64,000 bases of DNA from Escherichia phage slur02, in sequence record NC_028927.1, one strand, 5' to 3'. Positions 57,741 through 63,067 of this stretch are shown here, piece by piece. Position 1 is the stretch's first letter; every line of letters begins with the position of its first letter. The position numbers and the translations under genes are program-made. Under the pieces are notes generated by a model that saw only the letters and a program-made list of their open reading frames with translations, ran no database searches and was not told the DNA's origin.

Positions 57741-60700
57741 ATGGCTACTTTAAAACAAATACAATTTAAAAGAAGCAAAACCGCAGGTGCACGTCCTGCT
57801 GCTTCAGTATTAGCCGAAGGTGAATTGGCTATAAACTTAAAAGATAGAACAATTTTTACTAAAGATGATTCAGGAAATATCATCGATCTAGGTATTGCTA
57901 AAGGCGGTCAAATTGATGGAAATGTAACTATCAATGGTCTTTTGAGGTTAAACGGTGATTATGTACAAACAGGTGGAATGACCGTAAATGGACCTATTGG
58001 TTCTACTGATGGCGTAACTGCAAAAGTTTTCAGATCTACACAGGGTTCATTTTATGCAAGAGCAACAAACGATACTGCAAATGCCCATCTTTGGTTTGAA
58101 AATACAAATGGCTCAGAACGTGGCGTTTTATATTCAAAACCGCAGTCTGAAAATGAAGGCGTAATTACAATGCGTGTTCGTCAAGGAACCGCTGCGGGAG
58201 CTCAAAATTCAGAATTTCATTTCATTTCTACTGATGGAGGTATCTTCCAGGCACGTAAGTTAACTGCTTTAACTTCTATTAGTACACCAACTATTAGTGT
58301 TAATTTAATTAATCATGATTCTAAATCATTTGGACAATACGATTCACAATCTTTGGTTAACTATGTTTATCCTGGAACCGGTGAAACAAATGGTGTAAAC
58401 TATCTTCGTAAAGTTCGCGCTAAGTCCGGTGGTACAATTTATCATGAAATTGTTACTGCCCAAACAGGCCTGGCTGATGAAGTTTCTTGGTGGACTGGTA
58501 ATACACCATTATTTAAACTATACGGTATTCGTAACGACGGTAGAATGATTATCCGCAATAGTTTGGCCATTGGTACTGTGACACAAGGGTTTCCGTCAAG
58601 TGATTATGGCAATGTTGGGGCACTAGGAAATATATTTCTTGCTTTAGGTGATAATGGAACTGGTCTAGTTTATAGAAAAACCGGGGTATTTGATTTCGTT
58701 GGTTCTGGTTTATCTTTGGCATCTATTACTCCTGATAGTTTCCGTAGTACCCGTAAAGCAATTTTTGGTCGTTCCGAGGACCAAGGTACAACATGGATTA
58801 TGCCTGGCACTAATGCTGCTTTCTTGTCTGTTCAAACACAAGCTGATGAAAACACTGCTGGAGATGGTCAAACCCATATTGGATATAATTCTGGCGGAAA
58901 AATGAACCACTATTTCCGTGGTAAAGGCAAGACTAATATTAATACTCAAGAAGGCATGGAAGTTAATCCGGGTATTTTGAAATTGGTAACTGGCTCTAAT
59001 AACGTACAGTTTTATGCTGACGGAACAGTATCTTCAATACAAAGAATTAAATTTGATAACGGATTAGTTCTTACTGGTGCTAGACCCGACGGTATTCAAC
59101 TTGACGCTCCTACAACAACAGATGGCACTAAAACTATATTGTGGGCCGGCGGTACTCGCCCAGGTCAGAATAAAAGTTATCTATCTATCAAAGCATGGGG
59201 TAACGCCTTTAACACATCTGGCGATCGCGCTCGTGAATCAGTTTTTGAAGTAGCTGATGGACAAGGTTATTATTTTTATGCGCAGCGTGTAGCTCCTGCG
59301 GCAGGTTCAACAACTGGAGTAGTTCAATTCAGAATTGCTGGAGCATTATTAACTGGTGGGGGTATTACATCATCTGGTTCTATTGTTACTGAATCAAGTT
59401 TAGTTGCCAATAATGGCATGTCAGTAAATGGTCAGGCTAAATTTGGCGGAACAGCAAACGCATTGAGAATTTGGAACGCCGAATATGGCGCTATTTTCCG
59501 TCGTTCAGAAAGTAACTTTTATATTATTCCAACCAATCAAAATGAAGGCGAAAGTGGAGACATTCACAGCTCTTTAAGACCTGTTAGAATAGGATTAAGC
59601 GATGGCATGGTTGGGTTAGGAAGAGATTCTTTTATAGTAGATCAAAATAATGCTTTAACTACTATAAACAGTAACTCTCGCATTAATGCCAACTTTAGAA
59701 TGCAATTGGGGCAGTCGACATATATTGATGCAGAATGCACTGATGCCGTTCGTCCAGCCGGTGCAGGTTCATTTGCTTCGCAAAATAATGAAAACGTCCG
59801 TGCTCCGTTCTATATGAATATTAATCGCACAGATACAAGTACTTACGTTCCAATTGTTAAACAGAGATACGTACAAAATAATAGTTGCTATTCTATTGGT
59901 ACTTTAATTAATGGCGGTAATTTTAGAGTTCATTATCATGAAGGTGGTGATGGCGGTTCAACTGGTGCGATTATAAAGGATTTAGGCTGGGAATTTAACA
60001 AAAATGGTGATTTTTACTCTCCTGGTAAATTAGGTGCTGGAAATATTCGTATCGGAACAGACGGTAATATTACCGGTGGTTCTGGTAACTTTGCTAACCT
60101 AAATACGACTTTAAACCGTAAAGTAACTACCGGCTGGATTAACTATTCTTCTGTAAGCGGTTGGTATAAATTGGCAACAGTAACTATGCCTCAAGGTGTA
60201 GCTACGGTCCAATTTAAAATAACAGGCGGTTCCGGTTTTAACGTTGGTATTTTCGAACAAGCAACAATTAATGAAATTGTATTACGTTCTGGTAATAATA
60301 CACCTAAAGGAATTAACGGTGTTTTGTGGCAACGTGAAACAGATGCTATTAAAGATATTGCGTATATTAATACCTCAGGCGATGAGTATGATGTTTATAT
60401 TAGTTGTGGCACTTATTTAAATAGACTTACCATAGAATATAGCACTTCAGAAAATGCTTCTGTGGTAGTTCATGGATTATATGGGCCTACGCAATCACCG
60501 GTAGAAGAGCTTCCTGTAGATATTGTTAAAGGTCGTGTTTTTAAACTTCTTAATAATAGCTCAGGCGTTTTTGACGCGGGTAGTTCTAATATTTCTACAA
60601 ATGCAACTTTTGTGGCAAATACTACTATAGGATACCGTCACAAATCTAACGGCGACGAAAGTGGCTCTGCAGCTGCTCTGTTTTATAATGATGGTACTAC

Positions 60701-61562
60701 GTTCCACATATTATTAACAGATAAAAATACCGATACTGATAAAACTAAAGCCTCGGGTTCTTATAATAGCTTGAGACCTTTTTCTATCAATATCGCTTCA
60801 GGTAAAGTAACTATTTCAAACTCTATGAGCGTTTCTGGGGTATCAGAGTTTTATAATGGCCTTAACATCAAAAATAATGGAAGCATTAACTTTGATAAGT
60901 CTGGTGCTAACCCGAGAAATATGAGAATATTTCATGCTGGCGATGCTTCTCGCGGTAACCGCATTGAAATTGCAGATGAAACTAACTATATTGCTTACTT
61001 TGAAAAAACTCCAGGTGGAGCTAACCGCTTTGTAGTAAATAATGCTACTGTAGCTGGTGTTAATCAAATGAATTCATTTGGTATTAACATCAATAACGCG
61101 CTTGGTGGAAATAGTATAGCATTTGGTGATAATGACACAGGTATTAAGCAAAACGGCGATGGATTATTAGACATTTATGCGAATGGTGTGCAAACGTTCC
61201 GTTTTCAAAACGGTGATTTGTACTCATATAAAAATATAAATGCCCCAAACGTTTATATTCGTTCTGATATTCGCTTAAAATCTAATTTCAAACCTATCGA
61301 AAATGCACTTGATAAAGTTGAAAAACTCAATGGTGTCATTTATGATAAAGCTGAATACATCGGTGGAGAGGCAATTGAAACTGAAGCGGGTATTGTAGCT
61401 CAAACGTTACAAGACGTTTTACCAGAAGCCGTCCGTGAAACAGAAGACAGCAAGGGTAATAAAATACTCACTGTTTCTTCTCAAGCCCAGATTGCTCTTC
61501 TGGTTGAAGCTGTGAAAACGCTTTCTTCTCGTGTAAAAGAACTTGAATCTAAACTTATGTAA
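57741..61562 (+). CDS. 37: long tail fibre distal subunit gp37 (T2/T6-like long form)
   Basis: 1273 aa; conserved N-terminus ([16 protein letters not shown]); C-terminal region resembles an intramolecular chaperone domain. Confidence 0.95.
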
Positions 61563-61564
61563 AA

Positions 61565-61590
61565 GAGGGCTTCGGCCCTCTAAGGATTTT
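61565..61590 (+). terminator. hairpin between genes 37 and 38 (partial terminator or attenuator)
   Basis: GAGGGC-UUCG-GCCCUC hairpin; the U-run is separated from it by the SD of gene 38. Confidence 0.45.
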
Positions 61591-61592
61591 TA

Positions 61593-62378
61593 ATGGCAAT
61601 TGTAGGTGTTCCTGGCTGGATTGGTGAATCTGCCGTGAATGAAACTGGACAACGTTGGATGGATGCTGCAATGAGAGCAGTCCGTGTTTCAGTTCCCGGT
61701 TGGATGAGCTCAATGGCCGGACAATCTAAAGAAGTATATTATAGCATTGGTGCTAGTAATTCTTATAATAAAGATACATTAATAAACTGGATAAAAGCCC
61801 AAGGCAGTACTCCTGTTGTTATTACTATTACAGGAAATATTGTTTCTCAATCTACTGGTGTTCCATGCTTAGATTTTCCTAGCTCATTAACTAATGCATA
61901 CGTGACACTTAATATCAATTCAGGCGTGCATGTTTGGGGCCGTGGCGGGAATGGCGGAAATAACTCTGCCGGTGGAGCAGGAGGAACTGCAATAAATAAT
62001 GGAATTGGAACTAGATTGCGTATTAACAACAATGGTGTTATCGCAGGAGGCGGTGGAGGCGGTGGAGGCGGATATTATTCTCCTTTTTCACAAATGAAAT
62101 TGACTTTTGGCGGTGGCGGCGGTCGTCCATTTGGTGCTGCTGGCGGGTCTGCTAATATGGAACAGGGCGCTACTGCTGGTACTATTTCTGCACCTGGTAA
62201 AGGGTCTGTCAATGGTATCTATAATGGCGGGAATGGCGGTGATGCTGGTGCCGCAGGTGGTAAATGTAATATTCGTGGGCAAGGATCAGAATATAACGGC
62301 GGTGCGGCCGGTAAAGCTGTTACTGGTAATGCTCCAACTTGGACTAAGGTTGGTACAATATATGGTTCAAGAGTATAA
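61593..62378 (+). CDS. 38: gp38 receptor-binding adhesin (T2-type, glycine-rich motifs)
   Basis: 261 aa with several poly-Gly runs (GGGGGGGGG, GGGGG) separated by variable segments. Confidence 0.9.
   Translation: MAIVGVPGWIGESAVNETGQRWMDAAMRAVRVSVPGWMSSMAGQSKEVYYSIGASNSYNKDTLINWIKAQGSTPVVITITGNIVSQSTGVPCLDFPSSLTNAYVTLNINSGVHVWGRGGNGGNNSAGGAGGTAINNGIGTRLRINNNGVIAGGGGGGGGGYYSPFSQMKLTFGGGGGRPFGAAGGSANMEQGATAGTISAPGKGSVNGIYNGGNGGDAGAAGGKCNIRGQGSEYNGGAAGKAVTGNAPTWTKVGTIYGSRV
62046..62072 (+). repeat. three tandem copies of a 9-nt unit (GGAGGCGGT x2, GGAGGCGGA) encoding the poly-Gly run in gp38
   Basis: Direct reading of the sequence at 62046-62072. Confidence 0.8.
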
Positions 62379-62410: not shown

Positions 62411-63067
62411 ATGGCAGCACCTAGAATATCATTTTCGCCCTCTGATATTCTATTTGGTGTTCTAGATCGCTTGTTCAAAGATAACGCTACCGGGAAAGTT
62501 CTTGCTTCCCGGGTAGCTGTCGTAATTCTTTTATTTATGATGGCGATTGTTTGGTATAGGGGAGATAGTTTCTTTGAGTACTATAAGCAATCAAAGTATG
62601 AAACATACAGTGAAATTATTGAAAAGGAAAGAAATGCACGCTTTGAATCTGTCGCCCTGGAACAACTCCAGATAGTTCATATATCATCTGAGGCAGACTT
62701 TAGTGCGGTGTATTCTTTCCGCCCTAAAAACTTAAACTATTTTGTTGATATTATAGCATACGAAGGAAGATTACCTTCAACAATAACTGAAAAATCACTT
62801 GGAGGATATCCTGTTGATAAAACTATGGATGAATATATAGTTCATTTAAATGGACGTCATTATTATTCTGACTCAAAATTTGCTTTTTTACCAACTAAAA
62901 AGCCTACTCCCGAAATAAACTACATGTACAGTTGTCCATATTTTAATTTGGATAATATCTATGCTGGAACGATAACCATGTACTGGTATAGAAATGATCA
63001 TATAAGTAATGACCGCCTTGAATCAATATGCGCTCAGGCGGCCAGAATATTAGGAAGGGCTAAATAA
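62411..63067 (+). CDS. t: holin T
   Basis: 218 aa; N-terminal transmembrane segment (VAVVILLFMMAIVWY) and large periplasmic domain; follows gene 38. Confidence 0.9.
   Translation: MAAPRISFSPSDILFGVLDRLFKDNATGKVLASRVAVVILLFMMAIVWYRGDSFFEYYKQSKYETYSEIIEKERNARFESVALEQLQIVHISSEADFSAVYSFRPKNLNYFVDIIAYEGRLPSTITEKSLGGYPVDKTMDEYIVHLNGRHYYSDSKFAFLPTKKPTPEINYMYSCPYFNLDNIYAGTITMYWYRNDHISNDRLESICAQAARILGRAK

Follow-up and report, generated by a model that had tools for sequence, protein, structure and literature searches.

Can a short repeat in the coding sequence of a phage adhesin change the length of the protein by whole units, and what holds that length in place? The question is raised by a 27-nucleotide (nt) glycine tract at positions 62046-62072 (+ strand) of a 64,000-nt stretch of Escherichia phage slur02 (NC_028927.1), the whole of which is called the window below. 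The tract lies in frame within gene 38 (61593-62378, + strand), which encodes a tail-fibre tip adhesin of 261 amino acids (aa). A sequence-only reading of this DNA had proposed that the repeat is prone to in-frame slippage or recombination, altering the length of a glycine motif and thereby shifting host range. We consider it probable that the tract, which encodes a polyglycine-II (PGII) strand (G152-G160), is subject to slippage and unequal exchange, that selection holds its nine positions, and that the run forms a junction within a mosaic gene.

The product of this open reading frame (ORF) is a T2/T6-type gp38 adhesin, as first suggested. It matches Pfam families GP38 (PF05268; 3.5e-72, 243.2 bits, residues 47-261) and Gp38_N (PF21721; 8.2e-18, 64.6 bits, residues 1-42), both with a cut-off of 25 bits, and HMMER aligned it with the solved gp38 structures of phages S16 (PDB 6f45_D; 2.7e-49) and PP01 (9v85; 1e-33). 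An AlphaFold2 (AF2) model built on a 50-sequence alignment has a mean predicted local distance difference test score (pLDDT) of 92.2, and in Foldseek its only significant PDB matches were the same two proteins (6f45_D, E 2.5e-21, template modelling (TM) scores 0.80/0.84; 9v85, TM 0.75/0.87). The model is consistent with the three-domain gp38 fold, i.e. an N-terminal attachment bundle, a beta-helix and a polyglycine-II sandwich. That alignment shows invariant or almost invariant glycines in all motifs, separated by segments in which no residue has a majority. From its family membership the protein would be expected to bind an outer-membrane receptor and to set host range. The gp38 of T4, correctly set apart in the sequence-only reading, is an unrelated assembly chaperone and not an adhesin (PMC6851490).

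Where the run stands in the protein follows from the alignment of G152-G159 with G151-G158 of S16 gp38, a segment labelled 'helix 3; 151-GGGGGGGG-158' in the description of that structure; in S16, helix 3 occupies, as a PGII helix, the centre of a three-layered sandwich, and the hydrogen-bonding capacity of its backbone is fully used by the helices next to it (PMC6851490). Because of this homology to solved structures, G152-G160 can be assigned to PGII helix 3. The model agrees, with a mean pLDDT of 98 for residues 151-160, neither helix nor strand assigned by DSSP to residues 152-159, and a hairpin directly after the run (strands 160-165 and 168-173). Immediately 3' of the tract lies the T6-like hypervariable segment 2 (HVS2), or loop B (62073-62108, + strand; Y161-F172, YYSPFSQMKLTF), just as loop B of PP01 (Q161-V170) directly follows the run of that protein (PMC12892980). 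In this region PP01 lines adapting to O157:H7 fixed the changes Y159H, Q161H and N163H (PMC6027323), and the position of Tyr159 corresponds to G160 of the window protein. The run thus appears to be a core structural strand whose C-terminal end stands at the receptor-binding tip. The idea that glycine motifs frame the receptor loops holds in so far as the motifs separate hypervariable loops (PMC3157838, PMC12892980), but this run, as the probable central PGII helix, would be more than a frame or a spacer between loops.

The tract consists of three 9-nt units, GGAGGCGGT GGAGGCGGT GGAGGCGGA, with the codons GGA GGC GGT GGA GGC GGT GGA GGC GGA, and encodes the longest Gly run of the protein. The triplication noticed earlier is confirmed by Tandem Repeats Finder (62046-62071, period 9, 2.9 copies, 100% matches, score 52), which describes a tandem array of short identical units in coding DNA, albeit a short one. 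If nine Gly codons are drawn independently (usage window-wide, of gp38 or of GG contexts), the observed identities (codons 1=4=7, 2=5=8 and 3=6) arise by chance with a probability of 0.0024-0.0076, and simulation with GG-context usage gives about 0.010 for no more than one mismatched codon at a lag of 9 nt. Taken as a single run, the periodicity is mildly non-random. Codon choice in 32 distinct run sequences of relatives (corresponding to 62046-62123 in the window) also departs from that of the surrounding DNA: GGC makes up 51% of Gly-run codons versus 16% of Gly codons window-wide, GGG is nearly absent (1%), and neighbouring codons are identical less often than in shuffles (87 versus 108). 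Within gp38, GGC is enriched in GG contexts.

Length changes of exactly one unit are found at homologous tracts. In the Yersinia phage PYps14T the run is encoded by (GGCGGCGGT)x3+GGCGGCGGA, i.e. four units and 12 Gly, while its sister PYps15T has two copies of GGCGGCGGT in the same arrangement, i.e. three units and 9 Gly. The two gp38 genes (L176 and L177) show zero mismatches, and their only other difference is the lack in PYps15T of one Asn codon (TATAAT to TAT, 3 nt) in the 'IYNGG' region before a glycine motif. Over the 25,000 nt around gp38 a single match at 100.0% joins the two genomes, and PYps15T is 12 nt shorter in it; the two gp38 gaps add up to this shortfall, so there is no other length difference across the 25 kb. 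The four-unit allele is also present in the E. coli phage AV121 (138/138 nt), which comes from another laboratory and so argues against an assembly artefact. An independent extra 9 nt, together with a Gly>Val change, gives the G10-V-G run of PYps32T. Losses occur as well: P0017, from a Krischvirus-like metagenomic contig of 162 kb, has GGT GGT GGC GGT where its relative P0012 has GGT GGT GGC GGT GGT GGC GGT, exactly one 9-nt unit less (at the level of loci, exactly GGTGGTGGC is lost in L027 versus L009); and P0005, 3 aa shorter, lacks the GGC GGC GGT found in P0003. Such comparison across T2/T6-like phages had been proposed as a check, and it reveals a run whose length is not strictly fixed.

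Larger rearrangements end in the same runs. The partner in unequal exchanges is the Gly5 run (G5) downstream of loop B (62109-62123, + strand; G173-G177, GGC GGT GGC GGC GGT, within the GGGGGRPF motif). Tandem duplications of loop B (HVS2) are present in PYps47T (L150; 18 aa) and ZN18 (L003; 17 aa), each consisting of the segment YYSPFSQMRLTF plus a hybrid Gly run; the junctions are hybrids of the nine-Gly (G9) and G5 runs, and they differ between the two phages, which points to independent events. In P0067, P0101, P0116 and P0117 the G9 and G5 runs are fused with loss of loop B, and larger deletions between Gly motifs were found in P0011, P0087/P0089 and P0158; the deletion junctions of P0067, P0101, P0116, P0117, P0011 and P0087/P0089 fall within Gly runs. 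The other motifs vary too: the first glycine motif of PYps55T is longer by one GGTGGACAA unit than that of PYps35T, and D5505 has GGGG at the G5 run, one codon fewer. The PYps55T site is homologous to a second 9-nt tandem repeat of the window gene (61944-61961, + strand; GGCGGGAAT GGCGGAAAT), which encodes GGN-GGN of the first glycine motif (Tandem Repeats Finder: 61943-61961, period 9, 2.1 copies). Two apparent cases were set aside. Proteins of 278-281 aa in several clusters are, all but PYps47T, N-terminal extensions due to alternative starts and not insertions, and the split gp38 of Shigella phage Sf25 (L007, MF327009) has a 103-nt gap in the beta-helix plus a gap at the 3' end and is not a motif-mediated deletion. 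This Sf25 gene is annotated as two coding sequences, its 3' end runs into the holin gene and its Gly run is intact; it is probably an assembly problem.

Identity to the T6-type phage RB5 changes abruptly at the run. The beta-helix segments 5' of it have a nucleotide identity of 0.47-0.55, the run itself 0.78, HVS2 0.97 and the parts beyond 0.69-0.85, with a step from 0.55 just 5' to 0.97 just 3' of the run. More generally, loop B (HVS2) is 94-97% identical to T6-type genes (RB5, L015) and HVS3-4 77-85%, and these Tsx-binding adhesins of the T6/RB5/WilhelmHis group have the same GGM-GGC-GGT run, while the N-terminal and beta-helix parts of the window gene are only 47-66% identical to theirs. 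The identity step suggests that the run coincides with a recombination junction, and the gene appears to be a mosaic, T6-like 3' of the run and not T6-like 5' of it, with the junction in or close to the run. Both the mosaic boundary and the ends of rearrangements thus coincide with glycine-rich motifs. Recombination at the motif, as anticipated, is seen in homologues, but it is not a new idea: glycine-rich motifs were proposed as sites for the modular shuffling of gp38 in earlier work (Tetart 1998; Trojet 2011, PMC3157838). WilhelmHis, a member of the T6-type protein cluster, uses Tsx, and the T6-like HVS2-4 make Tsx a reasonable guess for the receptor of slur02.

Against this background of change, the length of the run is strongly conserved. 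In a set of 246 gp38 proteins that combined cluster representatives and members (the run being counted after the conserved N-x-G-x-I-x), nine Gly are present in 147, eight in 41, seven in 13 and more than nine in none; about 15 further proteins scored six only since the preceding residue is also Gly (the II-GGGGGGG-AGA type). Counts below nine mostly reflect substitution at the last one or two positions rather than a change of length, and the segment keeps the same alignment positions in nearly all 246 proteins. Each length variant that was looked up, seven of them in the run/HVS2 region and two (D5505 and PYps55T) in other Gly motifs, was present on a single contig, while canonical alleles occur on up to 146 contigs, a distribution consistent with purifying selection. 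In IMG/VR, an exact-flank pattern with a variable gap gave zero matches, and an alignment-based locus search together with a degenerate N-G-x-I-x-G6 DNA pattern returned mostly unrelated poly-Gly sequences, with one new pattern locus that is gp38.

The perfect repeat itself seems to be young. The gp38 gene, like the whole window, is 100% identical to that of Escherichia phages slur04, slur11 and slur13, and eight of ten contigs encoding the identical protein have the codons GGA GGC GGT GGC GGC GGT GGA GGC GGA, one synonymous difference from the window. Other alleles of this protein have GGC in unit 3 (JK38) or in all three units (JLBYU22), and one is irregular; T6-type genes have (GGC GGC GGT)x2 GGC GGC GGR, with the same GGM-GGC-GGT periodicity. 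By parsimony, the window allele would have arisen through one synonymous C>A change in the middle unit that made the units identical, and the perfect triplication is best read as recent and lineage-specific, built on a 9-nt periodicity that is older. Concerted evolution among the units was considered and rejected, as single synonymous A/C changes account for all identical-protein alleles.

Taken together, these data suggest how the tract may behave. A low-complexity GGN tract whose third positions drift would lend itself both to slippage during replication and to unequal exchange with the Gly5 run nearby. In nature the length does change in steps of one 9-nt unit (three Gly), and duplications and deletions of the whole loop are found as well. 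The strand would run, central and fully hydrogen-bonded, from the beta-helix body to the distal tip, where it hands over to loop B. Selection on the PGII lattice probably removes most of these changes, leaving nine positions in the great majority of proteins and throughout the sampled part of the window's own lineage.

Several observations weigh against this interpretation. The in-frame changes foreseen for the repeat are borne out in homologues (PYps14T/PYps15T, AV121, P0017, PYps47T, ZN18) but not in the window's own lineage: 28 records of at least 91% nucleotide identity are all 786 nt long; all ten contigs with the identical protein have nine Gly codons, despite 3-41 nt differences that are all synonymous; the 12 listed full-length members of the 68-member cluster at 90% are all 261 aa long; and with synthetic four-unit and two-unit probes about 30 own-lineage records all span 130 nt, the three-unit length. 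The mutability of the window tract is therefore extrapolated from homologues. Three units make a short array, and contractions of two codons (P0141) and five codons (P0028) break a strict rule of one turn per step. The metagenomic contraction variants are singletons, and in T6 no viable phage was obtained once an individual glycine motif (2-4) or HVS (1-3) had been deleted completely (PMC3157838), so the metagenomic deletion variants may be defective. Four PP01 populations passaged 21 times gained only point mutations in gp38 (PMC6027323). Finally, matches at a three-codon lag are in excess family-wide (94 observed versus 78.9 shuffled, P=0.0036, 32 distinct related runs), but this statistic ignores relatedness among the runs and is descriptive only.

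The periodicity might be pure coincidence, left behind by synonymous drift among the GGN codons of the run and with no mutational or functional consequence. The perfect repeat is, after all, a single synonymous base away from the commonest allele of the identical protein, other relatives have period-3, period-6 or irregular codon orders, and, in one gene chosen from a 64-kb scan, a probability of 0.002-0.01 by chance is nothing exceptional. Coincidence nevertheless leaves aside the gain and loss of whole units at the homologous tract, the family-wide three-codon-lag excess with its deficit of identical adjacent codons, and a share of GGC in the runs which indicates that codon order is not neutral noise. 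We regard it as unlikely.

A more ambitious extension of the preferred reading concerns geometry. Each turn of a polyglycine-II helix takes three residues, with a rise of about 3.1 Angstrom per residue. A 9-nt unit would then correspond to one PGII turn (about 9 Angstrom), which may be why steps of three residues recur in viable isolates. It is conceivable, although about as doubtful as coincidence, that the unit is a 'one-turn module', i.e. that slippage by one unit moves loop B out or in without altering the angular register of the central strand and has been kept by selection as a fast, reversible, in-frame means for T-even phages to retune receptor binding.

Somewhat less probable still is a contingency locus, in which a selected hypermutable repeat maintains standing in-frame length variants that switch or broaden host range. 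Bacterial simple-sequence contingency loci usually have longer arrays, often turn expression on and off through shifts of the reading frame, and show high measured switching rates. The likeness lies in a short tandem repeat that sits in a gene for surface recognition and varies in unit number between genomes that are otherwise nearly identical; the window differs in having three in-frame units only and strong length conservation. In favour of such a locus, the run abuts receptor loop B, and the sisters PYps14T and PYps15T differ by one unit with no other length difference in a comparison that covered the 25 kb around gp38. Four of five independent expansion or duplication alleles, moreover, are those of phages with Yersinia pseudotuberculosis as isolation host (PYps14T, PYps32T, PYps47T and ZN18); a tie of the expansions to Yersinia hosts was considered, but is weakened by the same four-unit allele in AV121. 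The gp38 genes of PYps32T and PYps47T differ by one base plus indels, their genome lengths differ by 45 nt, equal to the net gp38 difference, and the phages lyse 87 and 52 of 128 Y. pseudotuberculosis strains, respectively, PYps47T having the narrowest range of its subgroup (PMC8762354). The sisters that differ by one repeat unit, on the other hand, have nearly equal ranges, 78/128 for PYps14T (12 Gly) and 85/128 for PYps15T (9 Gly) (PMC8762354); these published ranges, from non-isogenic isolates, lend no support to the proposal that repeat length shifts host range. The invariance of the window's own lineage, the single-contig tips on which the looked-up variants stand, and the PP01 evolution experiment, which yielded no gp38 indels (PMC6027323), also speak against a contingency locus.

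Equally improbable as the driver of the codon pattern is a constraint on translation or on the nucleic acid, whereby alternating codons avoid G homopolymers and a balance of GGA, GGC and GGT eases tRNA use: the depletion of identical adjacent codons, the rarity of GGG and the GGC enrichment in GG contexts suit it, but some relatives use GGC x7 or GGT x7, unit-sized indels are left unexplained, a tie to phage tRNAs was rejected as the window contains no tRNA gene, and the constraint is in any case compatible with a slippage-prone tract under selection rather than exclusive of it.

Much of this agrees with known systems. The gp38 protein, its fold, the role of its glycine motifs, their use as recombination sites and the presence of indels among PYps adhesins are already known, the last noted only in an alignment (PMC8762354). 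The gp38 proteins of S16 (6F45) and PP01 (9V85) share family and fold with the window protein, whose run lies on S16 helix 3 and is followed by loop B as in PP01; the run has nine Gly versus eight in each of these, the ninth position in PP01 being Tyr159, a site of adaptive change. The hypervariable loops differ from those of S16 and PP01, so the receptor probably differs as well. The T6-type genes of PYps14T/AV121 and PYps15T have a homologous tract with the same unit length and an almost identical unit, GGCGGCGGT versus GGAGGCGGT in the window, and so give a direct example from nature of the copy-number change foreseen for the repeat, but their gp38 proteins are from another lineage, with about 64% amino-acid identity to that of the window.

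In the shuffling model (Tetart 1998; Trojet 2011, PMC3157838), motifs likewise flank hypervariable segments, and exchanges, duplications and deletions end in motifs; what that account describes is exchange between motifs or genes, from which a single-unit change inside one motif differs. The duplication of a small domain in T4 gp37 (Tetart 1996, as cited in PMC3157838) resembles the loop B duplications of PYps47T and ZN18 in being in-frame and at the tail-fibre tip, although it concerns another protein and much larger units; according to that citation, a change of host range was shown experimentally for T4 gp37. Within helix 3, a 9-nt repeat that varies in its number of units was not found described in the literature searched on slippage in gp38. 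Such variation would be a minor mode of mutation beside the shuffling already known to act through the motifs, and leaves the established picture of gp38 unchanged. In most T-even phages host range is determined mainly by this adhesin, which is also a target for the engineering of therapeutic phages; a tract that can change unit by unit, with viable 12-Gly isolates, bears on the stability of engineered adhesins, on the assembly and comparison of gp38 genes, and on how much length the polyglycine sandwich tolerates.

The neighbourhood of the gene is that of the T-even phages, with the order g37-g38-t complete in the window and annotated likewise in relatives. Gene 37 (57741-61562, + strand), identified from the ORF list and by Pfam Peptidase_S74 and Gp34_trimer matches, encodes the distal long-tail-fibre subunit of 1273 aa, to whose tip gp38 attaches; residues 1175-1232 form the Peptidase_S74 C-terminal intramolecular chaperone. 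Gene t (62411-63067, + strand) encodes the holin (Pfam Phage_holin_T, 5.4e-116). A perfect hairpin, AGAGGGC-TTCG-GCCCTCT, with a UUCG tetraloop (61564-61581), followed by five T, lies after the stop codon of gp37 (61560-61562) and ahead of the start of gp38 (61593). The identical 261-aa gp38 is encoded on contigs L153-L162, which differ by up to 41 nt, all synonymous, beside gp37 proteins of 1253-1312 aa in nine of them and one annotated as 594 aa; identity despite synonymous drift argues for very strong purifying selection on gp38, next to a length-variable gp37.

Adhesins of the gp38 type are also common on contigs of 100-225 kb labelled E. coli, Shigella sonnei, Salmonella, Citrobacter or Enterobacter, one of them labelled as a plasmid (clusters P0031, P0039, P0043, P0066 and P0071 with their members); several have an N-terminal extension of 17-19 residues that resembles an upstream start call. 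These contigs may be phage-plasmids or co-assembled phages. In the Krischvirus-like loci L008-L010 and L021-L027, gp38 follows a 73-aa ORF rather than gp37, a placement consistent with the displaced g38 reported for RB49 (PMC3157838).

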